Numbered from the stretch's first letter, positions 3,118 to 64,000 are shown. The stretch: DNA of 64,000 bases from a virus (IMGVR_UViG_3300042382_000102:1-64000); one strand, 5' to 3'. The notes: generated from the letters alone by a model not told the origin. Translations and numbers: made by a program.

Positions 3118-3146
3118 GATCTCTCTTTAGCGTCCCCTGGTAAATG
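3118..3146 (-). promoter_or_regulatory. Putative phage RNAP promoter, copy 1 (predicted +1 G at 3125)
   Basis: Minus strand CATTTACCAGGGGACGCTAAAGAGAGATC; 29/29 identical to 25096..25124; aligns with SP6 promoter ATTTAGGKGACACTATAG; intergenic. Confidence 0.8.
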
Positions 3147-25095: not shown

Positions 25096-25124
25096 GATCT
25101 CTCTTTAGCGTCCCCTGGTAAATG
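25096..25124 (-). promoter_or_regulatory. Putative phage RNAP promoter, copy 2 (predicted +1 G at 25103)
   Basis: Identical 29-mer to 3118..3146; intergenic after the tail tube gene; preceded by hairpin GGGCTAG-TTT-CTAGTCC (25124..25140). Confidence 0.8.
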
Positions 25125-26975: not shown

Positions 26976-28070
26976 TTAAGCGTGGAGAATAGGTAGAATA
27001 CCTAAGTTCAATGCACTCATCTTACGTGCCCATGAACCAGCAGTTGCAAAAGCAGTGTTGGTAGCAAAAGCGTTAGTAGCGCCAGCCCAGTCGTAACCCA
27101 TTGGATGTACAACGAAGCCATAACGATACCAGATAGATGTAGAACCACCACCAGTGTAGGAAGCAGCAGAGCGGTCAACTTCAACAGGTGTAGGAACAGC
27201 AATATTTGTAAAGCTGATAGCGCCTGGCTTGCAAATGAATGTAGTCTTAGTAGAACGATCATTTACGTTAGCAGAAGCTGAGAGGTCACCTTGAGCAACA
27301 CGGCTGAGGATCAAACGGAACTTACCACCGAATACGGTTTGGAATGTTAGGTTACCATCAGTAACTGTAGTTACGTCTACTAAGTTAGCAGCACGTAATT
27401 CAGCTAAAACTTCAGGTGAAGTGATCATGTACATGAAGTCAGGCTCATAGTCTTTGAATGCCATACCAAGAGCTTGGAATAGACGTTGACCACGGGCAGC
27501 ACCAATAGCGGTAGCATCAAATAGCTTACGCTGATCAGAAGCAGAAGTAGCAGCTGCGGTACCGAATACACCAGCAGCGTTGATGTCTACGAAGTTACCA
27601 ACAGTAGAACCATCAGCGTCTGTGTCATAGCCAACAATACCAGCACCACGAGAAACTTCATAAGCAGCTACACCTTTGAGTGTAGATACGATAGAGTCAG
27701 ACTCGTCTTGGCTACGAACTTCAGAGAAGTCACGAGCGATTTTAGAGAGACCGTCTTGTTGAGAAACGATTTGCTGGAGGTTAACTTGTTGTGAACCGAA
27801 TGTACGGACTGTCTTGATGTAGTCAGCAATTTCAGTTGACACATCAGTGTAGTTGCCTTCATTAGCGCTAGATAAGCTAGCAACGTTAATGTTGGCAGCT
27901 AGAGGTTTGTACCAGCGCATTTGACCAATGAAGCTCTCGCCTGTTGGGTCAATACGGGCATCAGTACCAACGATACCAGTGCTGTTAAGCTTCTTGGCGT
28001 TTGTGTACATTTCATCAGCATATGCAGAAATAGCAATAGCTACGTTTTGGAACATTGTATGATTAATCAT
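26976..28070 (-). CDS. Major capsid protein
   Basis: 364 aa after the scaffold; biased codon usage; VEVDR...GGG.T...RYG.V.HP.G..W motif of HK97-fold capsids. Confidence 0.85.
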   Translation of the reverse strand: MINHTMFQNVAIAISAYADEMYTNAKKLNSTGIVGTDARIDPTGESFIGQMRWYKPLAANINVASLSSANEGNYTDVSTEIADYIKTVRTFGSQQVNLQQIVSQQDGLSKIARDFSEVRSQDESDSIVSTLKGVAAYEVSRGAGIVGYDTDADGSTVGNFVDINAAGVFGTAAATSASDQRKLFDATAIGAARGQRLFQALGMAFKDYEPDFMYMITSPEVLAELRAANLVDVTTVTDGNLTFQTVFGGKFRLILSRVAQGDLSASANVNDRSTKTTFICKPGAISFTNIAVPTPVEVDRSAASYTGGGSTSIWYRYGFVVHPMGYDWAGATNAFATNTAFATAGSWARKMSALNLGILPILHA

Positions 28071-28090: not shown

Positions 28091-28786
28091 TTAAAGTGTG
28101 AAGTTACCGAGTTTACCACCTGCAGCAAGTGCTAACACTTCTTCAGTAGTCATATCAGTAATCTTCTTATTGGGATCGAGTTTGGGAGTACCGTTCATAT
28201 TGCTACCACCACCCCCTGAATTAGATTTAGGTTTAAATAGGAAAGAATTATCTTCATTCTTTACGTATTGTCCTACAAAATCCTTGATTGATACACCAGA
28301 TTTGTGAATCCATGCACCAGTTTCTGGATCTTGGATGAGTTGATCGATAATATCACGATAGGCCATTTGGCCAGATCGCTCATTACGGAAATCAAGACTG
28401 GTTAATGCATTACGAACTGCACCATCACGGGTGAGTTCAGTTACTTTACCTTCGGCTAACGCAAGCTTTTCAGTGAGTTCTGCGAGCTTCATCTCAGCAA
28501 CTTCTTTATGCTTACCTTCATCCTCTAAAGCTTTCATCTTACGTTGTTTAGCATCATCTTCAAGACGAACACGCTCTTTAACAGCATTGTCACGTTCTTG
28601 ATAAGCTTTATCTAAACTTTGTTTGATTTTAGAAAGACGCTCTTCAACCATACGATTGATCATGTCTTCTGTATCTTTATTGTTAGTACCTGCACCTGGA
28701 TCTCCAACCTGATCGGCTTGAAACTCTGGGTTTAATGTGGTACCATCATCGAGGAACTCTTTGTTTCCGAACTTATCTACTTTCAT
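28091..28786 (-). CDS. Capsid scaffolding protein
   Basis: 231-aa charged coiled coil ending FLFK...SGGG; directly upstream of the capsid gene. Confidence 0.8.
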   Translation of the reverse strand: MKVDKFGNKEFLDDGTTLNPEFQADQVGDPGAGTNNKDTEDMINRMVEERLSKIKQSLDKAYQERDNAVKERVRLEDDAKQRKMKALEDEGKHKEVAEMKLAELTEKLALAEGKVTELTRDGAVRNALTSLDFRNERSGQMAYRDIIDQLIQDPETGAWIHKSGVSIKDFVGQYVKNEDNSFLFKPKSNSGGGGSNMNGTPKLDPNKKITDMTTEEVLALAAGGKLGNFTL

Positions 28787-28852: not shown

Positions 28853-31800
28853 TTACGGTCCAATACCATACCAATCCATACCTTTAGGTATAGGAGCGAG
28901 TATCTCTTTTCTCGTAATCTTGTTTTTGGGATTTAGTAAGCCATCCTCAATAGCTTTTTGGCGAAGCTTATTGTAAGTCTCGTTAGACATACCTTCAGCT
29001 TTTAATGCCAGTAATGTTTTCTCTATTGTGTTACCTTCAAGAGCATCCGCATAGATTTCTCTAAGCGCATACTTGGACTTTGCTGCTTGTCCAATGTTGG
29101 TGAAGAAAGCATCATGAATCGTAGCGGTTTCAATACCATTTTTACGACCCCATAAATGAAATCTTCTTACAATAGTAGCATCGTTCATGTGGTTACCATT
29201 AACCCCCATGCCAATACCTGCCCTCATCAGGCTTGATTTTCCTAGAAGTGAAGCATCTTCTGCTCGATCTTCGTAAATGTTACGGACCATCCTATTAGCT
29301 TCTTTGTCATAGAACTCAATGCTAGTTTGGATTTTAGGTCTGTATCTCTGGTATAAAGTCTTACCATCAAATGTTACCCAAGGTACATCAACCTTCTGAG
29401 TTTCATCAACGTAAGCTTTAGCAGCTTCTTTCCAGAATTGTACGAACTTTTGAGTTACTGGTGCTCTCTCAGCTAGTCTTCGAGACATAATCTCAGAGAC
29501 TGCTTTGAAGTCTTGAGGTCCAATTAGACCCCTACGAGCATTCATTAACTTATCGACAAACGCTTCTACGTCTGGGTGAGAATCACGAGCATGTGCTAAA
29601 AGTTCTTGCCCCACAGGGGTTTCACCTTCAACAACCTCATTCAACTCACGCTTTAATTGTTTCAAACCAAAGACAACATTTTCAGCACCTAGCTTATCTG
29701 CCTCTTTGATTTTTCCATCTATAATATTTGTTACACCACGAAGTTCTTCACGAGTAACAACAGTATATCCTTTTAACTCTAATACTGAAGCAAATTTAGC
29801 CTCAATATTAGCCGCCTGTGTTGCTTTACCAGCACCATAGAAAGAAACCATGTTCTGAGCTTTAGCAGCTTTCTGGAGATCAGTCCATTGAACATTAGCA
29901 TCTCTTAACCCTTGTATCTTTTGAAACTCTGGATCAGACACTGTATCCATAGCAACTAAGTCATACAAACGATTCTTTTGGAGTGTAGGTAACACATTTG
30001 AGTTGATTGAAATGTCTCTATCGCCTGTACTCAAACCGATAATCTGAGCACCAGAGGATGAGGCATCATTCTCAATCATTAATTTTGTTTTGTATTCTGC
30101 TAATTTATTTACATTAGTAAAATCACCATTTACAGCTTTATGCGCACGAGCGTATTCTATTGCTAATCGACTAATCTTTGGAACTTCCTCTGCTTCAGTA
30201 GCACGGATAATAGGATGCTCTAGGTATTCCCTAATCCTTCTATCTCGTTGAGTAGTTTCCATCATTAACCTACCAAGGCTTAGAATTTCTTTTTCATTTC
30301 TTAAAAAGATTTCCATTCTACCAGATTGTGTTAAAGCTTCTGTAGCAGGTCCAAGCATAGACCCAGTTTGAATCATTAACTCTCGTAGAATCTCAGGAGT
30401 CATATCTTCAGGTTTTGCACTATTAAGAAATGGTCTAACCACTTCACCACCAGTTGGTGTTAGGAATCCTTGATAGTATACACGTCCACGACCATCAATA
30501 TTAGCGACAACACTAAAAGGTTTACCAGTATCTCTGTGATACTTAACCGTCTGCATAAAACTGTAACCTTGATCTCCACGAGTCAAAATAAGTTTTCTAA
30601 AATCATTTAAGTCATCGTACTTCTTTACGTTCCCACGGGGATCTCTAAAGCGAACTAAGTCTTCCATGAATCCAGCATACTCGTTATCAACCTCATATTG
30701 AACTGACATTGTATGATTAAGCATATCAGCAAAATCATTGTCAATAAGAATTTTATCGTAATTAGCATTAGCCCTGCGAGTAATAATCGGAATACCTGTA
30801 TTATTGCCTCTAGCATCAAAATAAGTCTTAGCTCCAGAACGAACATACAGCTTGTCTCTTGGAGAATTAATACCAATACGTTTTGCTAGCAATGCACTAC
30901 GATTAGCTCTCTGTAAGTTTAACATATCTTTGTTTAAGATCTGTACTTCACGACTAACTGTATCTCTCCAAGGACCACTTGCACGACCTGTTTCTAGGTC
31001 AACAACTGATCTCCTAGTCTTACCTCTCATGACCACACGAATGTAGCCTTTGTCTTTTAAGGCAGTAAGAATTTGGGAACCATCAGCATGATAGTCTTGT
31101 AATGTAGGTTTAAAGAACGGGAACTCTGGGACATTCCAAGATTCTCTCAATGTCTTTCCTACATTAATAGCTAATGAGTCATAGTCAGTAGACTTACCAT
31201 CAGCAACTACAGTTAAAACTTTAGATAGGGCATCAATAGCCTTCTTGTCGTTAAGACCACCCTCAACTAATTGATTTAAATAATTTTGTCTTTGTTTACC
31301 AAATAGAAACTCTAAGTCTACTATTCTTCGATAGTCTTCTCTTCTGTTTCTTAAAAATTCATCAACTAATCTTTCAGTAGGCGCTTTATCTTTAAAAAAT
31401 AGTTTAGCACCAGGAATATTATCCTCTAAGTATTTAACTATTTTCTTTTTAAAAACATCAATACCAATTCTAGGAGTACCTTTAAACCATGTGTATAGTG
31501 GAGTTCTTCCAGTATAATACAAGCTTCTGGCTAGAGGTCTACCTTCAGTAGTAGCCCAATTACGAACATATCTTTGATCATCTATATTCTTTTGAATGAT
31601 TTCATCAAAGGTATAATACTTACCAAATATTTGTACTTTAGCAGGTTCTCCAGCAACTCCATATGAGTCAAATTGTGATGATCGTGCTCTTGATCTACGA
31701 TCTAGAATACGACTAGTGTTAACTACAGAATACTGCATTTCACCACGGGCAACATTCATGAAGTTTACCCAAGGCTGTTTATCATTGTTATATCGTTCAA

Positions 31801-33271
31801 ATACAACACGCAAATTTTCAGCAATAGCAGTCTGTTGGTTAACAGAAACAGAATCATCTAGGCTTTCAACGAATTGTTGAATCCAAACTTTTTGTTCTTG
31901 GTTTAGAGCCTTAGAGTTTTTAATAAAGTCTAATCGTTCCTGTAATACACCAAAGTCTGGGTCATACAAAAGAGTAGAACTCTGTTCACCTGTAAAGGGA
32001 TCAAAGCTATTATTACGTTCATCAAACTCGTTATTAGCCCTAATCCTAACTGATCGTTTACCTTGTAATGAGGTACCACGATAGTCTACTAGAGATAGTG
32101 TTTGTGCAGTATTTTCAGTGTCCGCTATATACATTGCCTTTAATTGTTTATTGGCCTCTGTATTTTTAATAAGTTCATTAGGTCTAGCTACATTAACAGC
32201 AAATAAATTAGATTCAGCTTCTGCTACTGCGGCTTGCCTAGTTGGAAAGAATGTTGTTCTTGCATTATCAAGTTTTCTTAATGCTGCAATACTTAATTGT
32301 TGACCCTTAGCGGTAGTAAATGCTTTAACGTCAAGAACACCTTTTTGTAGTAATCCTGCACGTTCTTCACTACCTAAATGTTTAACTTGTACCATCATAG
32401 GCTGACGCTTAAGCCATGTACCATAAGTTTCTACTGGGGGTAAGCTACCATCTAAAATATTCTCAGATGTTTCCTTAAGTTTATTTACTTTAACTCTTGA
32501 TTCAGCTTCCTCAGAAGCTTTTAATAGTTCTTCTTTGTTCTTTAAAACAGGAACCATAGAACTACGGCAATTCCAGTGTAAGGGAGGTCTAAAACGAAGA
32601 TCATCAATCTTATATACTTGACCATCATGGTGAGCACAGATCTTTGATGTTCTATTATCTAACACAGCAGTAAATCTATAACCTTTTAGTAATTCGTTAT
32701 TACGATCCATTACTAGATTAATTGCTTTAGCTTGCGTATTCGTAATAGCAGTTCTAACTAATACCTTAGCTTGCACTTCAGTCATAGTTGTAGTCTTAAT
32801 TACATCAGCAATAATTTCTTTAACAGGTTTATTGTCTGCTAATCCTGACTTAATTTTTCCATCAATCCTAGCTAACTCAGTTGTACCAATACTGTCAAAG
32901 TGATCTTTTAAACTCTTTGAGGCAGTAATATTAGGTCCAATCAGGAGAGGAATAGCATCACTACCTCTAGGTTTTTGTACCCTAAAGAAAGATCCAGCAC
33001 TTCTCTCTAGATTATTAGCATGGAAGCTTACAGAGGCATCTGCATAATCACTAACTGAATTTTTAGTAATCATGTGTAACTCTTTAGTTGCTCGAGTTAC
33101 TTCTGGTTTAACATCAGCCTTAATATTTTTAGATAATAAAATCTTTAATCTTTTCTGATGCCTACGGATGCCTCTAGAAACATTGGTTGATGTCTCTGCT
33201 TCATATAGCCTAGTGTCAGCTAAGTGTTGTACAATACGATCATAAACTTCCGTATTAATTGGTGTTGGCAT
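28853..33271 (-). CDS. MuF/SPP1-gp7 minor head protein fused to a T7/SP6-family single-subunit DNA-directed RNA polymerase
   Basis: N-terminus: VRTA...AVLDNRTSKIC...PPLHWNCRS (C235) and TYGTWLKRQP. C-terminus: DGRGRVY (D926), motif A NDASSSGAQ (D1069), motif B KAQNMVSFYG (K1137/Y1145), WVTFDG, NGNHMNDA, motif C IHDAF (D1387). Confidence 0.92.
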   Translation of the reverse strand: MPTPINTEVYDRIVQHLADTRLYEAETSTNVSRGIRRHQKRLKILLSKNIKADVKPEVTRATKELHMITKNSVSDYADASVSFHANNLERSAGSFFRVQKPRGSDAIPLLIGPNITASKSLKDHFDSIGTTELARIDGKIKSGLADNKPVKEIIADVIKTTTMTEVQAKVLVRTAITNTQAKAINLVMDRNNELLKGYRFTAVLDNRTSKICAHHDGQVYKIDDLRFRPPLHWNCRSSMVPVLKNKEELLKASEEAESRVKVNKLKETSENILDGSLPPVETYGTWLKRQPMMVQVKHLGSEERAGLLQKGVLDVKAFTTAKGQQLSIAALRKLDNARTTFFPTRQAAVAEAESNLFAVNVARPNELIKNTEANKQLKAMYIADTENTAQTLSLVDYRGTSLQGKRSVRIRANNEFDERNNSFDPFTGEQSSTLLYDPDFGVLQERLDFIKNSKALNQEQKVWIQQFVESLDDSVSVNQQTAIAENLRVVFERYNNDKQPWVNFMNVARGEMQYSVVNTSRILDRRSRARSSQFDSYGVAGEPAKVQIFGKYYTFDEIIQKNIDDQRYVRNWATTEGRPLARSLYYTGRTPLYTWFKGTPRIGIDVFKKKIVKYLEDNIPGAKLFFKDKAPTERLVDEFLRNRREDYRRIVDLEFLFGKQRQNYLNQLVEGGLNDKKAIDALSKVLTVVADGKSTDYDSLAINVGKTLRESWNVPEFPFFKPTLQDYHADGSQILTALKDKGYIRVVMRGKTRRSVVDLETGRASGPWRDTVSREVQILNKDMLNLQRANRSALLAKRIGINSPRDKLYVRSGAKTYFDARGNNTGIPIITRRANANYDKILIDNDFADMLNHTMSVQYEVDNEYAGFMEDLVRFRDPRGNVKKYDDLNDFRKLILTRGDQGYSFMQTVKYHRDTGKPFSVVANIDGRGRVYYQGFLTPTGGEVVRPFLNSAKPEDMTPEILRELMIQTGSMLGPATEALTQSGRMEIFLRNEKEILSLGRLMMETTQRDRRIREYLEHPIIRATEAEEVPKISRLAIEYARAHKAVNGDFTNVNKLAEYKTKLMIENDASSSGAQIIGLSTGDRDISINSNVLPTLQKNRLYDLVAMDTVSDPEFQKIQGLRDANVQWTDLQKAAKAQNMVSFYGAGKATQAANIEAKFASVLELKGYTVVTREELRGVTNIIDGKIKEADKLGAENVVFGLKQLKRELNEVVEGETPVGQELLAHARDSHPDVEAFVDKLMNARRGLIGPQDFKAVSEIMSRRLAERAPVTQKFVQFWKEAAKAYVDETQKVDVPWVTFDGKTLYQRYRPKIQTSIEFYDKEANRMVRNIYEDRAEDASLLGKSSLMRAGIGMGVNGNHMNDATIVRRFHLWGRKNGIETATIHDAFFTNIGQAAKSKYALREIYADALEGNTIEKTLLALKAEGMSNETYNKLRQKAIEDGLLNPKNKITRKEILAPIPKGMDWYGIGP

Positions 33272-33325
33272 TTAAACTCCTTGATGCTAGTTAACAACTG
33301 CATCTTGGATGCCCTCGTTAATAGC

Positions 33326-33563: not shown

Positions 33564-35177
33564 TTAAGCTCCTGAATTATTATCTGTACGATTGTTGTCA
33601 TTCATATCAGATACATTTGAGTCAATTCTAGTTGCCATAGTATCTACAAGAGGATCACTCTGAATCTCAGCTATACCTTCTTCATCGTTATACTCAGCAG
33701 GGAGTACATCGTTAAACTTAGCAATAGAGATAAATGTAGAACGTGGAATAATACCTTGCTGGTACCATTCTGTAACTAGTCTCATCCAGTCAGCACCTAC
33801 AGGTGTAGGATTAAAGTCAGCACTTAATGTAAACTTAATGTCTGTTGGAAGAACATCAACATTATATTTCCACTTAAGCATAACTGTAATAATCTGTCTC
33901 ATTGTCTCTGAGATACGAGTATTAAGCATGCCTAATTGAGCAGTCTGAGCAGCATTACGGATTTCTAAGCTTACGCCTGACTCACCTGAAGAACCTTCTG
34001 GCGATAACATGCGGATTCCCATACGAGCCATCTCTTCGATAGTAGCAGCAATACTTGCCTCCATATCTTTTAGAGCACCTGTAGGTGTATCTAGTGCTTT
34101 GATATCATCTCCTGCACGAAGTTTAATCCATGAGCCTAAACCAGCAGCTACAATATCCTCAAACTCTTCATCAGTCATATCTGACATGACTACTGGAGTG
34201 TATGTTGCAGCGCCATAGAGTAAATGATTACGTCTACTAATCTTGTTGTATAGTGCAATCTCACGATCAATTAATGATTGTAGAATTGGTTCAACAGGAT
34301 CAATTTGACCATTTAATGGGTAGGCAGGAATGAAATTCATTCTCTCACCATTCATTAATGGTATTTCTGTGCGTGTTTTAGTCCATGCTGCATTAGCGTT
34401 ATCTGTCTGATACTTAGAAGTAACATTACCATTAATAACGTTAACAGACTCATTAGTGTCTCGTGTGTAAGTATCCACAACAAGTAAGCCTGCATCATCT
34501 AGGTAGTAGTGAGTAACTGTGTCTACATAGTCTGGATGGAATTGATTTTTAGTATAGTCTTCCATATAATAACGGAAGAGTAAACTTGTTAATACTTGTT
34601 TGTTAGTATTACGGTCTTGACCTCTACGCCAGTTAATAATATTCTCTGCTTGAATGAGCATAACATATGGTGATAGAGCCTTAGCTTCTTCTACTGTTAA
34701 TGCGTCTGGGTTAGCAACTGTAGGATAGTCTACTAAGCACCAAGCTCTGGATGACTGTAATTCTTCCCAAATAGCAGCATCTAAAAATCCATGTAGTGAG
34801 GTACCATCAGAGCCAAAAGAAGTACGAATCCAATCTTCAGTTCCTTCTGGGAACATATTATCAGGTAATTCAATAGCCGCTTGTTTACGTAGTAGTCCAC
34901 CCACTAAAACTTTAGCATATTGTGCTGTTAGACCTGGAAGTTCACCTTCAGCACGATAAAAATTGTACTGTTGAGAACTCATTGTAGGAGAAAATGGTAA
35001 CAATAGGTTACTAAAATTTACTGGATCAATTGTATCATCATATGCTCGTGCATGTGTCTGTCCATTTAGAACAGCTCTGGATCGTTCCCAGAGTGGCCGC
35101 ATAGATTCGTATGCAGCATTAGGATCCCCAAGGCTTTTTGTCTTAGCCTTTGATGGGGTCGTTGTTAGGTTTGCCAT
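33564..35177 (-). CDS. Portal protein (DUF4055-like)
   Basis: 537 aa; AENIINWR, ESGVSLEIR, EWYQQGIIP motifs; precedes the MuF gene. Confidence 0.85.
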   Translation of the reverse strand: MANLTTTPSKAKTKSLGDPNAAYESMRPLWERSRAVLNGQTHARAYDDTIDPVNFSNLLLPFSPTMSSQQYNFYRAEGELPGLTAQYAKVLVGGLLRKQAAIELPDNMFPEGTEDWIRTSFGSDGTSLHGFLDAAIWEELQSSRAWCLVDYPTVANPDALTVEEAKALSPYVMLIQAENIINWRRGQDRNTNKQVLTSLLFRYYMEDYTKNQFHPDYVDTVTHYYLDDAGLLVVDTYTRDTNESVNVINGNVTSKYQTDNANAAWTKTRTEIPLMNGERMNFIPAYPLNGQIDPVEPILQSLIDREIALYNKISRRNHLLYGAATYTPVVMSDMTDEEFEDIVAAGLGSWIKLRAGDDIKALDTPTGALKDMEASIAATIEEMARMGIRMLSPEGSSGESGVSLEIRNAAQTAQLGMLNTRISETMRQIITVMLKWKYNVDVLPTDIKFTLSADFNPTPVGADWMRLVTEWYQQGIIPRSTFISIAKFNDVLPAEYNDEEGIAEIQSDPLVDTMATRIDSNVSDMNDNNRTDNNSGA

Positions 35178-35903
35178 TTAAAGATTCTCCTCCATAAGCA
35201 TCCTAACAATTCTAGCAACGATGTCTGAACGAACAATATCGTCTACACCAAACTCGATGATAGGAATGTCAATGTTATGTTTTTTACATAGGTGGACAAA
35301 TTTGAGTATGTCCTTACCACTATTAATGTCACTCTGGGCAGGATCGCCACAGAGGACCATTTTAGAATTTTCACCAAGCCTTGTTGTAATAGCTTTTAAT
35401 TCTTCAAATGTTAAATTCTGACACTCGTCTACAATGACAAGTGAGTTTTCATAAGATCGACCACGAATAGTTTCTAGTGGTTGGATCTCGATTGAACCTT
35501 TATTTACTAGGTATTGATAGAAGCCTAATCCGAAAGACTTTTCTAAAACACTAGTAATAGGCATTAACCAAGGAGCCATCTTATCAGCGATGGTCCCTGG
35601 GAAATGTCCTAAAGATTTTCCCGTAGCTACGTTAGCTCTACTTAAAATTATTTTGTCATACTTCCCTGTTAAAAACAGAGAGGCTACCATAGATGAGGAG
35701 CAATAAGTTTTACCTGTACCAGCGCAGCCAATAGTGACAGTGATAGGATAGTGGCGAATTGCAGTAAGTAGATTATCTTGCTTGTCATTTTTTGGTTGAA
35801 CATGAAATGGCCTTGGGGCCTTAATAACTTTAACATTAGATTGATAATCCTCAATATGTGTAACTTGAGCTTGTTTACGTGGAACTCTACGGGGTTTATT
35901 CAT
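35178..35903 (-). CDS. phoH: PhoH-family ATPase
   Basis: GCAGTGKT Walker A, LGHFPG, IRGRS, DECQN, TRLGE, GDPAQSD, DIVRS. Confidence 0.93.
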   Translation of the reverse strand: MNKPRRVPRKQAQVTHIEDYQSNVKVIKAPRPFHVQPKNDKQDNLLTAIRHYPITVTIGCAGTGKTYCSSSMVASLFLTGKYDKIILSRANVATGKSLGHFPGTIADKMAPWLMPITSVLEKSFGLGFYQYLVNKGSIEIQPLETIRGRSYENSLVIVDECQNLTFEELKAITTRLGENSKMVLCGDPAQSDINSGKDILKFVHLCKKHNIDIPIIEFGVDDIVRSDIVARIVRMLMEENL

Positions 35904-39327: not shown

Positions 39328-39345
39328 TTAAATCCTTTAAAAGAA

Positions 39346-39418
39346 GAGTGATAGTGGGAGTCGAACTCACATTCCGAAGCAATTAAATCCTCGATTCTAC
39401 CGATTGAATTATACCACT
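39346..39418 (-). tRNA. Atypical tRNA or tRNA-like element (anticodon reads UAA/Leu; short variable loop; no CCA)
   Basis: Cloverleaf: acceptor AGTGGTA/TATCACT, D arm ATTC-AATCGGTA-GAAT, T arm GTGAG-TTCGACT-CCCAC; mismatches in the anticodon and T stems. Confidence 0.6.
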
Positions 39419-39606
39419 CTAGTGACGCCTTTTACTGTAGCGACAACAGCCCTAAGGTGGGATCATGCTGAATACCTCATGAACTTAATCACTTGGCTAC
39501 CAGAGGGTTATTTAAATTTGTTTGTCCACTTAACTACCCATGCTAATCAATAGCCATGGTTACTTACCTTTAGGCTTAGGTGGTTTTTTCTTTTTATTGT
39601 TATACA

Positions 39607-39834: not shown

Positions 39835-41160
39835 TTAAAACATAAAACCTTTAGTGACTGTCTTAGTACCTGAACGAACAGGGAATAAGTATTCAACAGC
39901 ATACCTTAGTGCATCTGTCCAATGTTCTACATTTTCAGACTTAGATATTTGTGCTGTATTAGGGTTATTCTCAACCCATACAGTTCTTTCAAGGGATCGA
40001 ATTGTGTGTTCTGCTCGTGGATGAATATACATGTCTATATCACCATTAGCATTCTTAAATTTACGATTAACAGCAGCTACAGAGTCAACAATAGGAGGAG
40101 CAGCTCTATGTGCTCTACAGACAATGCCATAACTCTCTAAGATAGAGAAGTCAGTGGCTCCAGCAACAGCACTAGTTTTTCTAGCACGTCCTGCAGGATC
40201 TGGATAAGCAAATATCCTGTGTCCCTTGTCCTTAAATTGTGTCTTAAGCTTTTTAGCTAATTGTTCAGTATCGAGTACATTCTGCATATCCTCTAAGATA
40301 TGTATTTGTCCAGCTCTAACAGCAAATACTACTGCGGCCATAATACCAATGTTAAAGTCGATAGCTACATGTACATCTTCTTTGTTTGCTGTCTCTACAT
40401 TGAAGTAAGGGAGATCAGCAGTAACATGAGTCTTACGATCAAACATGTAGAATACCTTAGCACCTGAGTCTTCAAAGGAACACTCATACTCTCGAGCAAA
40501 CTTCATAGGATCGATTAAACGCTTAGTTCTCTCAATCTCTTGTACAGATAAATATGGAGAGTCTCTGTAAGTATATCTAAAGGTTTTCCAACGATTATCC
40601 ATTGTCTCAAAGTTAGTCATGTCATAAAAGTAATTCATACCTTTAGGAGTACCAATAATGAGAGCCTTGTGATTACCTGCCCAACGTGTAGTCATGGCAG
40701 GTTGAATGATAGATTCCCAAGACTCTTTAAGTCCTGGTTGACCTGTCCAGTCAGAGACCTCATCTCCAACAACAAAGTATTGACCTGATCCTCGCATCCT
40801 CTCAGATGCTTCATAAGACCATAACTTAAGCTTAACATTATTTGGAAACCAAAATGTTCCAGCTGTCTGGGAAGACTTTTCAGCATAATCCTCTAGACCT
40901 AAGTTATAGGCTAATAGTGGCCAATAAATATCTAATGACTGTTGATATGTAGGGCAGATGATAGACACATTCTTATTAGGAACATCCTGATCCATCTCCA
41001 GTAACTCATGCACAGCCATTGTAGCAGCAACACTAGCAAGGTAACTTTTACCAAAGCCTCGTGAGGCAACTGTGGCAGCATATCTTGTGCCGCCTTTCTC
41101 AGAGAATAAATACTTTAATACTTCTGACTGACCTCTGTGTAATTTAATTTCATTTGACAT
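39835..41160 (-). CDS. terL: Terminase large subunit
   Basis: Walker A ASRGFGKS, Walker B FVVGDE, GTPKG, FAREYECSF, nuclease IDFN / YPDPAG / HWTDALRY. Confidence 0.93.
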   Translation of the reverse strand: MSNEIKLHRGQSEVLKYLFSEKGGTRYAATVASRGFGKSYLASVAATMAVHELLEMDQDVPNKNVSIICPTYQQSLDIYWPLLAYNLGLEDYAEKSSQTAGTFWFPNNVKLKLWSYEASERMRGSGQYFVVGDEVSDWTGQPGLKESWESIIQPAMTTRWAGNHKALIIGTPKGMNYFYDMTNFETMDNRWKTFRYTYRDSPYLSVQEIERTKRLIDPMKFAREYECSFEDSGAKVFYMFDRKTHVTADLPYFNVETANKEDVHVAIDFNIGIMAAVVFAVRAGQIHILEDMQNVLDTEQLAKKLKTQFKDKGHRIFAYPDPAGRARKTSAVAGATDFSILESYGIVCRAHRAAPPIVDSVAAVNRKFKNANGDIDMYIHPRAEHTIRSLERTVWVENNPNTAQISKSENVEHWTDALRYAVEYLFPVRSGTKTVTKGFMF

Positions 41161-42369: not shown

Positions 42370-42390
42370 CTCTCTTTAGCGTCACCTGGT
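42370..42390 (-). promoter_or_regulatory. Putative phage RNAP promoter, copy 3 (predicted +1 G at 42374)
   Basis: Minus strand ACCAGGTGACGCTAAAGAGAG; one G>T change from the other copies, at the position that is also G/T in SP6 promoters; heads the packaging/structural operon. Confidence 0.8.
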
Positions 42391-42977: not shown

Positions 42978-42998
42978 TCTCTTTAGCGTCCCCTGGTA
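42978..42998 (-). promoter_or_regulatory. Putative phage RNAP promoter, copy 4 (predicted +1 G at 42981)
   Basis: Minus strand TACCAGGGGACGCTAAAGAGA; +1 is 17 nt upstream of the SleB start codon. Confidence 0.8.
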
Positions 42999-58045: not shown

Positions 58046-58222
58046 TTATTTATTTATTACATTGTTAGCTGCGAAACAAGCTGTTGATACAAAACTTAGT
58101 GCTATAGATACTAGTAAAAAGTCTGCTGAAGTCCATTGCTCTGTACCTGTTAATAAGTTAACTGATTGTGTTAATACCACAAGCATTGAACAAAAACCAA
58201 GTATAAAACCAATTAATTTCAT
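58046..58222 (-). CDS. Small membrane protein (58 aa)
   Basis: Manual translation MKLIGFILGFCSMLVVLTQSVNLL...; TAATG overlap. Confidence 0.5.
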   Translation of the reverse strand: MKLIGFILGFCSMLVVLTQSVNLLTGTEQWTSADFLLVSIALSFVSTACFAANNVINK

Positions 58223-58668
58223 TATTTTAATCCTGCTAATTTATTTAATCTTTTACGATGTCTGAGAGATACTGTTTCAGAAGAGCGCCATTGTACTTTA
58301 TCAATGAATCTATTATACCAGATATGATTATTAGTTGGAACTTCTACAAAACATTGAGACCATGTTTCTGCCCAACTTAAACCTCCTCTAGTATAATATT
58401 GCTCTAATACGTGGAATTCAAATGAGTCTATACCATTCTCTTCTATTAGTGCATTGATGTCTTTAGATGAACTAGTATAAACTCTCCAATTGCTTGGTTT
58501 GCCTTTATTAAGTCTACCATTCCCTTTAAACATCTTTTTACCAATATACATCATACCATTCTTTTTATCTTTAATTAAATAAATAAATCCAAAAGCATTT
58601 TCATGATCTAGTTGTTCAGTAAATTCCCAGTGCCCATTATCCTTCTTCTTTAATTTGGAAGTGGTCAT
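58222..58668 (-). CDS. GIY-YIG family endonuclease
   Basis: GFIYLI...YIGKK, W..YTSSS, E and YN motifs. Confidence 0.8.
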   Translation of the reverse strand: MTTSKLKKKDNGHWEFTEQLDHENAFGFIYLIKDKKNGMMYIGKKMFKGNGRLNKGKPSNWRVYTSSSKDINALIEENGIDSFEFHVLEQYYTRGGLSWAETWSQCFVEVPTNNHIWYNRFIDKVQWRSSETVSLRHRKRLNKLAGLK

Positions 58669-59341: not shown

Positions 59342-59526
59342 ACTGGGTAGGTTACTTTCTCAAAGCCATATCTCTTAACTCGAGCTAATAGTTTCTTGCC
59401 AACTTTATTACGAACTTTATACTTAATAATTGTAGGACGATCTACAAAGCTAAGATATAAATACTTATCGCCACGAGGATAAGTATATGTTGCCGATGGA
59501 ACTCTGTATACTAATGATTTTTTCAT
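59338..59526 (-). CDS. Small basic hypothetical protein
   Basis: 62 aa; ATGA overlaps at both ends. Confidence 0.5.
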   Translation of the reverse strand: MKKSLVYRVPSATYTYPRGDKYLYLSFVDRPTIIKYKVRNKVGKKLLARVKRYGFEKVTYPV

Positions 59527-59936
59527 TTTTGTTGTACTCTTATATTACTGTGAATTAATGTTAAAATACCTGAATCAGTTTTATATCTGTCTGAAAATAT
59601 TACTCTTTCAACGCCAGATTGGATTAGTAGCAGTGAACAATTGTCACAAGGAGCAGTTGTCACATATACTGTTGATCCTTTTAAACTCAAACCTTCTGCA
59701 GCAGCCTTAGAGACTAAATTTGCTTCAGCATGAATTACATAGGATAATGTTTTATTATAATCATCTTCACATTTATTAGGAAAACCTGTGGGAGTTCCAT
59801 TAAATCCGAAGCTGAGAATATTATTATTTTTTACTGCTATAGCACCAACCTTACGCTTTTCAGCATGAGACATTAGTGCTATTCTTTTAGCAAGATCTAA
59901 ATACAGGGAATCGTAGCGATCTTCTTTTGTAACCAT
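59523..59936 (-). CDS. dCMP deaminase
   Basis: KVGA, GFNGTP.G, HAEAN, APCDNC. Confidence 0.92.
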   Translation of the reverse strand: MVTKEDRYDSLYLDLAKRIALMSHAEKRKVGAIAVKNNNILSFGFNGTPTGFPNKCEDDYNKTLSYVIHAEANLVSKAAAEGLSLKGSTVYVTTAPCDNCSLLLIQSGVERVIFSDRYKTDSGILTLIHSNIRVQQK

Positions 59937-63658: not shown

Positions 63659-63921
63659 TAGTATACATCTCCATTTTCTTGAATCTTTTTATCTTCATAA
63701 GGTGCAGCTATTCTACGATAAAACTCAATCTTAGCACCTTCTAGAGCACCTACAATGTCGTTAATTGCTTGGTAGTTACCTTTATCTGTACGATTAAAAT
63801 AATCTCGTACAATAGAAGTAATAACAAAGTTTAACTCACCAGGGGTAGTGCATAAATCACCAACCTCAGCTACACTCTTTGTATGTAAGAACTGTTTAAA
63901 GTCTTGTCGAATATAAGGCAT
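63658..63921 (-). CDS. Conserved phage hypothetical protein
   Basis: MPYI...GELNF...GALEGAK.EFYRR...PYED.KI..NGDVY. Confidence 0.6.
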   Translation of the reverse strand: MPYIRQDFKQFLHTKSVAEVGDLCTTPGELNFVITSIVRDYFNRTDKGNYQAINDIVGALEGAKIEFYRRIAAPYEDKKIQENGDVY

Positions 63922-64000
63922 TAATCTAAATACTCCGTAATAATAGTGTCACAAGCTTTGTCTACTGTAGATCTCCACTCTGTAACTAGAGACTCAAAGA

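Follow-up and report, generated by a model that had tools for sequence, protein, structure and literature searches.

A MuF-polymerase fusion gene in the head operon

The DNA analyzed here (the window) consists of 64,000 nucleotides of the viral record IMGVR_UViG_3300042382_000102, which is 80,335 bp long and carries all of its genes on one strand. In the head operon of this phage, a single gene encodes a MuF head morphogenesis protein fused to a T7-type single-subunit RNA polymerase (RNAP). The fusion gene comprises 1472 codons and a stop codon at positions 28853-33271 of the minus strand. Two Pfam domains were recognized in its product, together with matches to PHROG 241 and PHROG 414. An earlier examination of the same DNA without database searches (the sequence-only reading) had described a 1472-residue open reading frame (ORF) in this interval. 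The ORF proved to be single and uninterrupted, but its orientation required correction, as it starts with an ATG at 33271 and runs down to 28853 on the minus strand. A plus-strand reading of the interval was rejected because stop codons occur throughout. A Shine-Dalgarno sequence, AAGGAG (33277-33282, minus strand), is positioned 5 nt ahead of the start codon.

The neighboring genes are all located on the minus strand in the order TerL, PhoH, portal, small ORF, fusion gene, scaffold and major capsid protein, and thus the slot between portal and scaffold that had been assigned to the MuF protein was found as described. The gene for TerL (39835-41160) was identified by Pfam and PHROG scans. The portal protein (33564-35177; DUF4055, PHROG 145) is the expected docking partner of MuF, and the head scaffolding protein (28091-28786; PHROG 206) and the major capsid protein (26976-28070; PHROG 247) are encoded on the other side of the fusion gene. 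The Pfam and PHROG scans identified no gene for a minor head protein beside the portal gene other than the fusion gene. It is part of a late head operon downstream of candidate promoters at 42,997 and 42,390, as fits a packaged enzyme. The start of the record is arbitrary, since the tail operon extends past position 1 and resumes at 80,335 down to approximately 69,940. A PhoH-like ATPase gene (35178-35903, minus strand) abuts the portal gene in the packaging/head operon, and the only tRNA of the window is a tRNA-Leu with the anticodon TAA (39345-39419, minus strand). A gene for a SegE-like GIY-YIG homing endonuclease (58222-58668, minus strand) is located beside a 5'-3' exonuclease gene.

The N-terminal MuF module and the middle domain

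AlphaFold was used to model the protein in two parts, both built on an alignment of 33 family sequences. The MuF/SPP1-gp7 module was delimited to residues 1-342 (32246-33271, minus strand) by Pfam, by the model and by comparison with BFVD. Phage_Mu_F (PF04233) matched residues 141-239 (32555-32851) with a score of 42.9 bits, above the cut-off of 29.6 (E 9.6e-11), and PHROG 241, head morphogenesis, was matched with an E-value of 3e-53. The model of residues 1-560 reached a predicted local distance difference test score (pLDDT) of 85.6. Foldseek searches of BFVD with the N-terminus yielded many phage minor capsid and head morphogenesis proteins (E 1e-9 to 1e-17), including a MuF-ADP-ribosyltransferase fusion of Xp12. 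The N-terminal 560 residues gave no Foldseek match in the PDB at E<=0.001, and no solved MuF structure was found there. The sequence-only reading had recognized MuF/SPP1-gp7 signatures in approximately residues 1-340. These motifs, AVLDNRTSKIC at residues 202-212 and PPLHWNCRS at residues 229-237, are in place, and the invariant residues of the module are T174, D205, C212, P230, H232, C235 and R236.

The MuF module is followed by a conserved and, according to the model, mostly helical middle domain (residues 356-535; 31667-32206, minus strand), which is bordered by low-confidence linkers at residues 343-355 and 536-540. In BFVD, the alignments of some long MuF proteins extend over this domain, and no match to it was obtained in the PDB.

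The C-terminal module is a complete T7-type RNA polymerase

Residues 559-1472 (28856-31597, minus strand) were identified by the model, VIA-align and Foldseek as a complete T7-type single-subunit RNAP, equivalent to residues 39-882 of the T7 enzyme. At the sequence level, RNA_pol (PF00940) matched residues 1053-1436 with 29.4 bits (cut-off 22), PHROG 414, RNA polymerase, was matched with an E-value of 3e-22, and a phmmer comparison with T7 RNAP chains gave an E-value of 4e-5. Phage_Mu_F and RNA_pol therefore each scored above their curated cut-offs. The model of residues 380-1472 reached a pLDDT of 82.7 and a predicted template modeling score of 0.77. Alignment of residues 559-1470 with residues 39-882 of T7 RNAP (8dh5_M) by VIA-align yielded a Z-score of 30.5 and a root-mean-square deviation of 3.5 Å for 526 residues. 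Z-scores were 28-30 for T7 chains, 26-27 for mitochondrial RNAPs and 15-17 for the N4 mini-virion RNAP (mini-vRNAP), and the Foldseek search with the RNAP model gave an E-value of 2e-20. Because the alignment spans T7 residues 39-882, the module represents the whole enzyme including the N-terminal domain and not a fragment. The C-terminal portion of approximately 915 residues that the sequence-only reading had interpreted as a T7/SP6-type polymerase is thus predicted to fold as an entire T7 RNAP.

All of the polymerase motifs quoted in that reading were located at the stated residues and in T7 order (minus strand throughout). Alignment placed the T/DxxGR motif DGRGRVY at residues 926-932 (30476-30496), with D926, R928 and R930 equivalent to T7 D421, R423 and R425. 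Motif A, NDASSSGAQ (30044-30070; DASSSGAQ at residues 1069-1076), provides the catalytic D1069, equivalent to T7 D537. Motif B, or the O-helix, follows the pattern K1134-x2-K1137-x7-Y1145-G1146 (29834-29872), which corresponds to K631 and Y639 of T7, and WVTFDG is found at residues 1298-1303. HMMER alignment and family conservation were used to assign residues 1311-1352 (29216-29341) as the region aligned with the T7 specificity loop, in which R1327 aligns with T7 R756; the AlphaFold model contains beta-hairpins in this region. Positions 29105-29200 encode both NGNHMND (residues 1358-1364; H1361 is equivalent to T7 H784, followed by D1364) and motif C, IHDAF (residues 1385-1389), whose H1386 and D1387 are equivalent to T7 H811 and D812.

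The conservation of these residues bears on the possibility that the polymerase has lost its activity and persists as a relic with the role of structural or ejection cargo. The modest Pfam score of 29 bits and the loss of one otherwise expected arginine could be taken in its favor. As had been stated before, the position equivalent by spacing to T7 R627 is occupied by Gln in this protein, and it is A, Q, S or V among the 116 family members. The directly adjacent K1134 is nearly invariant in the same 116 relatives and may substitute for the role of R627. Both catalytic Asp residues, D1069 and D1387, are present as previously noted, and they are identical in 116/116 full-length relatives together with D926, R928, R930, K1137, Y1145, H1361 and H1386; the DGRGRVY motif and motif A are unchanged in the same set. 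Even in alignments down to 18-24% identity, R930, D1069, K1134, K1137, Y1145, G1146, D1364 and D1387 remain invariant. This invariance of catalytic residues, which extends to the motif C His and the T/DxxGR arginines, argues strongly against a dead domain, as does the targeting of motif B by homing introns (see below), and we consider the relic very improbable. Judged by its conserved residues, the polymerase domain is apparently active and catalytically competent. Since MuF is fused to a complete and apparently active T7-type RNAP, the phage probably carries its own RNAP in the capsid, by analogy with known capsid proteins of the MuF type.

Conservation of the fusion and intron-bearing relatives

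A search with the RNAP part returned 327 clusters at E<=0.001. Among the 120 clusters listed, approximately 115 represented proteins of 1390-1600 residues with a MuF domain, while five were shorter and contained RNA_pol only. A search of 1.84 billion representatives (50% clustering) yielded 132 matches, and no free-standing RNAP closer than the MuF-bearing relatives was detected among them. The N-terminal MuF domain was retained in all six of the distant or longest relatives tested, of which five share 23-26% identity and one is a 2073-residue form. The same gene is present in the same slot, with 48.8% identity, in the cultured roseophages DSS3_VP1 and DSS3_PM1, which belong to the Naomviridae, contain deoxyuridine (dU) DNA and have a siphovirus morphotype. 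Its annotation in these two phages, where it is gp108 (YP_010105321) of DSS3_VP1, reads only minor head protein or head morphogenesis protein. DSS3_VP1 carries a tRNA-Asn between its portal and fusion genes instead of the tRNA-Leu. A related-locus search of viral contigs with the distant relative P0183 did not identify a locus.

The recurrence of the architecture in hundreds of phages, isolates included, addresses the concern that two genes were joined by an assembly or annotation artefact. Some relatives are indeed annotated as two genes, for example gp47 and gp49 of EBPR siphovirus 1. However, two split-looking relatives contain a group I intron at the same codon, located in motif B after K1137-A1138 (approximately position 29858 in our sequence). 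The intron was detected with Rfam at 86.2 bits in a 79-kb complete contig and at 40.5 bits in EBPR siphovirus 1, where the HNH endonuclease gene gp48 is situated alongside it. The coordinates of the introns in the two relatives are L151:4080-4346 and L150:11170-11396. As the group I intron sits exactly within motif B, the apparently divided genes are genes that undergo splicing. The insertion of homing introns into the best conserved catalytic motif is characteristic of essential genes. Otherwise, hundreds of contigs, all independent, and the genomes of two isolates contain the same unbroken ORF. The sequence-only reading had held that its proposal would fall if homologues were always two genes; they are uninterrupted elsewhere and the split cases bear introns, so that an artefact is already refuted and retains a negligible probability.

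A second RNA polymerase and a late promoter class

Beyond the end of the window, the record encodes a canonical free-standing T7-like RNAP of 722 residues (65,968-68,136, minus strand), which scored 267 bits to PF00940. Its gene ends an early region, with a few small genes between it and a terminator at 69,846-69,827. The same polymerase pair is present in DSS3_VP1. The MuF-RNAP and the free RNAP of this phage share only approximately 21% identity over 631 aligned residues and are therefore not recent duplicates. The existence of the free RNAP, which the sequence-only reading had missed as it was confined to the window, shifts the interpretation from a sole phage polymerase to a relay of two polymerases. 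The 13.9-kb contig JBIKJV010000357.1, which had been binned to a Lake Mendota 'Phycisphaerales' metagenome-assembled genome, is in reality a close phage relative with a free RNAP that is 91% identical. This mis-binned contig hints at a freshwater origin of the phage.

A candidate middle/late promoter, ACCAGGGGACGCTAAAG(AGAGA), follows the T7 layout and was found in five copies on the coding strand by sequence matching. Candidate promoters of the phage carry CTAWA at -5 to -1, as in the T7 layout. One copy of the late class is located at 65,962 (minus strand), directly after the free RNAP gene. The packaging/head operon that holds the fusion gene is headed by a copy of ACCAGGGGACGCTAAAG at 42981-42997 and by a second copy at 42374-42390 (both minus strand). 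Another copy (25103-25119, minus strand) precedes the tail genes, and the remaining one is found at 3125-3141 (minus strand). In relatives, a late-class copy is kept right behind the RNAP gene, and no late-class sequence was found in the 5 kb upstream of the free RNAP gene in this phage or its relatives. The DSS3_VP1 version of the class, ATAGGGTGCGTTAAAG, is present in six copies. A weak match with 3 mismatches at 68,349-68,365 (minus strand) is located within a small early ORF and is probably due to chance.

This promoter context suggests that the fusion gene is expressed among the late genes, which would also be expected if the protein were never delivered to a new host. It could then serve as a late-phase polymerase in the producing cell, where MuF tethers transcription or priming to procapsids or packaging or is cleaved off, and packaging would be incidental. 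On the other hand, the middle and late genes are already covered by the free RNAP, whose own promoter class is abundant. In addition, every relative tested, down to 23% identity, has retained the fusion to MuF, which argues that capsid targeting is the point of the fusion. No other minor head protein is encoded beside the portal gene. We regard a purely intracellular role as decidedly unlikely.

An early promoter-like element

A second promoter-like sequence, AAAAAGTGAGAAAA-N7-ATCTATAAT-G, occurs in one copy at 69,775-69,815 (minus strand), 5.8 kb past the end of the window. This early element measures approximately 37 nt, is almost invariant and has no other site than the start of the early region, where it immediately follows the terminator (69,846-69,827). 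Close and distant relatives contain 1-4 co-oriented copies at the same place, and DSS3_VP1 has two at the equivalent position, near 35.8 and 36.3 kb of its record, plus a copy of the core at 67.8 kb. The exact 21-base core was detected in 108 viral contigs with a local GC content of 30.5-53.6%. A search of 596 Gb of bacterial and archaeal genomes with a strict pattern returned one mis-binned phage contig and one probable chance match. Among the long contigs with the early element, 9/12 encode the fusion, including 3/3 that are at least 90% complete; the three contigs that do not encode it are all fragments of 65-85% completeness.

The early element contains CTATA at the position expected for a T7-type promoter as well as a perfect TATAAT. 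A TTGACA-like hexamer was sought 16-18 bp upstream of the TATAAT by reading the sequence and none was found. No stable or conserved hairpin was detected in the element (z-scores -1.3, +0.4 and -1.2). A sigma-70 scan of the early region identified 16 promoter-like sites compared to 29 in shuffled sequences, and none of them was located at the early element. The early element is considered the candidate promoter of the MuF-RNAP. In two complete relatives with terminal repeats, the element is located approximately 0.8 kb and approximately 18 kb from the start of the record. The direct terminal repeats of these relatives reflect assembly circularity and are uninformative as to which genome end enters the cell first.

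A proposed relay of two phage polymerases

The observations suggest a relay in which a capsid-borne MuF-RNAP starts early transcription and the free RNAP then takes over, a reading to which we assign a probability of approximately 60%. The late head operon would produce the fusion protein, and the MuF module would dock on the portal so that a few copies enter the procapsid, as inferred from SPP1 gp7. During the next infection, the fusion protein would exit the capsid with the DNA and transcribe the short early region from AAAAAGTGAGAAAA-N7-ATCTATAAT at 69,775-69,815. The last gene of this region encodes the free 722-residue T7-like RNAP, which would thereby be made. The free RNAP would in turn read the ACCAGGGGACGCTAAAG class, whose five copies begin at 65,962, and express the replication, head, tail and MuF-RNAP genes. 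In relatives with dU-DNA, early transcription would be freed from the host RNA polymerase. The relay is the simplest reading of a free RNAP gene placed behind a signal that the free RNAP itself cannot read at time zero. The proposed packaging, ejection and early transcription by the fusion protein draw on the analogy with SPP1 gp7 and with MuF cargo fusions. All predictions of the sequence-only reading that were open to computational checks were borne out.

A wider proposal can be built on this relay, in which infection is wholly independent of the host RNAP, the injected MuF-RNAP reads the approximately 37-nt early promoter (in its dU form in Naomviridae) and switches on the second polymerase, this route to a virion RNAP evolved independently, and MuF acts as a general delivery tag for large enzymes. 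We hold this extended version tentatively, at slightly less than even odds.

Several points weigh against the relay, in addition to the absent R627 equivalent. The perfect TATAAT means that the early element could be used by host sigma-70 as a -10-only promoter. The specificity-loop region of the MuF-RNAP, with 45% identity to the DSS3 phages, has diverged as much as that of the free RNAP with 59.5%, although of the two promoter signals the early element varies less, and co-variation of the loop provides no support for a pairing of the MuF-RNAP with this element. A 165-kDa protein must unfold to traverse a siphovirus tail. Vinga et al. (2006) reportedly did not detect co-ejection of SPP1 gp7 with DNA in vitro, and MuF anchoring would therefore be no guarantee of delivery. 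The paper that described DSS3_VP1 contains no mention of an RNA polymerase and reports neither virion proteomics nor a rifampicin test.

Some of these points also favor a different use of a packaged enzyme. In this alternative, the fusion protein is not the early transcriptase but acts on the DNA end, where it pulls in the genome by transcription or provides a replication primer, while the host RNAP reads the early element by means of its TATAAT. In T7, transcription by the phage RNAP draws in the larger part of the genome. SPP1 gp7 reportedly controls DNA exit and was not seen to be co-ejected. A role of gp7 in the initiation of infection is stated in PMC6316719. The perfect -10 hexamer and the uninformative loop co-variation fit this alternative as well. 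However, the early element lacks both a -35 box and a TGn extension, and approximately 25 bases outside the TATAAT are kept across phages of 30-54% GC and in a phage of Ruegeria, a pattern that host promoters do not show. Moreover, the element is essentially absent from the 596 Gb of searched genomes, and the fusion has retained a full promoter-dependent T7-type enzyme including the N-terminal domain. Given these observations, an action at the DNA end alone appears unlikely and early transcription by the MuF-RNAP is preferred.

If the relay is correct, it would explain how transcription starts in the dU-DNA Naomviridae, which is not addressed in the literature found. It would also provide an injected polymerase that is compact and amenable to experiments and whose candidate promoter is defined, a new orthogonal set of polymerases and promoters, and direct evidence that MuF can deliver a very large cargo. 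The cultured phages DSS3_VP1 and DSS3_PM1, which infect Ruegeria pomeroyi, make this interpretation of the fusion testable now.

Possible deoxyuridine DNA

A gene of the dCMP/cytidine deaminase family (59523-59936, minus strand) encodes a protein that is 37% identical to the characterized dCTP deaminase of DSS3_VP1. ThyA, ThyX and a YfbR-type HD dTMP phosphatase were sought in this genome and none was found. From this gene content, dU-DNA is possible in this phage. A nucleoside 2-deoxyribosyltransferase-like protein (PF05014) is encoded in a nucleotide metabolism cluster at the window end, from 63921-64000 on to genome position 64,334 (minus strand). This protein might replace the missing enzyme for dTMP removal. 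For the dU-DNA relatives of this phage, the proposed relay would parallel AR9/PBS2, which also inject an RNAP (PMC5449584).

Comparison with known systems

To our knowledge, virion-packaged RNAPs are known from a few lineages, namely the N4-like podoviruses, the phiKZ/AR9 jumbo phages and the crAss-like phages. The known virion RNAPs are dedicated giant proteins or multisubunit enzymes. In the fusion described here, an ordinary T7-type polymerase has apparently been recruited to the capsid by simple fusion to a portal-binding minor head protein, and this arrangement is found across a large and globally distributed siphovirus family. The sequence-only reading knew of no description of such a fusion, and none was found in our literature search, which covered freely accessible papers.

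The closest functional parallel is the virion RNAP (vRNAP) of N4, which is packaged, injected and transcribes the early genes, including that of a second phage RNAP that takes over (PMC4496689). Both systems have a single-subunit RNAP of the T7 family encoded among late or virion genes, two phage RNAPs and, as proposed here, the logic of a relay. N4 gp50 comprises approximately 3500 residues; domains for ejection and encapsidation are present at both of its termini, and a zincin peptidase domain invariably accompanies it (PMC5512222), whereas the protein of 1472 residues described here uses MuF as the carrier. Pfam detected only MuF and RNA_pol in the fusion, unlike the domain set of N4 gp50, and the polymerase is closer to T7 (Z 30.5) than to the N4 mini-vRNAP (Z 15-17). 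The early promoters of N4 are DNA hairpins, while the early element has no hairpin, and N4 is a podovirus, while this phage is long-tailed (siphovirus). With differences in length, domain composition, nearest structural match and kind of promoter, the fusion is not an N4-type vRNAP (Schitoviridae gp50).

MuF fusions with other cargo provide the structural parallel. In SPP1, the portal targets gp7 to the procapsid interior (PMC6316719), and it has been proposed that the host receives the C-terminal cargo of MuF proteins (PMC6316719, PMC5512222). MuF polymorphic toxins and polyvalent proteins likewise place MuF by the portal with an enzyme at the C-terminus, and the idea of capsid delivery is common to them (PMC6316719, PMC5576092, PMC5512222). 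Their cargo is a toxin, ADP-ribosyltransferase, nuclease or peptidase, in contrast to the DNA-dependent RNAP of approximately 915 residues found here. MuF toxins occur in temperate phages and have an immunity gene as their neighbor, whereas the next gene here encodes the scaffold and there is no immunity gene; a lytic lifestyle is described for the cultured relatives (PMC8323127). The MuF toxin paper PMC5576092 never uses the word 'polymerase', and the available portion of PMC5512222 reports virion RNAP modules only in N4-like phages, with no link to MuF. The fusion belongs to both PF04233 and PF00940 and is not a MuF toxin.

With the T7/SP6-type RNAPs (gene 1 of Autographiviridae), the fusion shares the full-length fold, the order of catalytic motifs, the region aligned with the specificity loop and, in its candidate promoters, the T7 layout. 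T7 RNAP is free-standing, early, made by the host RNAP and not present in the virion, whereas the fusion is late, joined to a head protein and found alongside a separate T7-like RNAP. In AR9/PBS2, an injected virion RNAP serves the early genes, and a further RNAP that is not part of the virion acts at later stages (PMC5449584, PMC4666361). The proposed relay resembles AR9 and the phiKZ-like jumbo phages in this succession of a virion RNAP and a second RNAP, and AR9 contains dU-DNA as do the Naomviridae. The AR9/PBS2 and phiKZ-like enzymes, by comparison, are multisubunit and beta/beta'-like, have an unrelated fold, are not fused to MuF and belong to jumbo myoviruses. Taken together, we infer that the fusion has the function of the N4 vRNAP in the architecture of a MuF protein with attached cargo, and may be viewed either as a virion RNAP with a new delivery route or as a new kind of MuF cargo.

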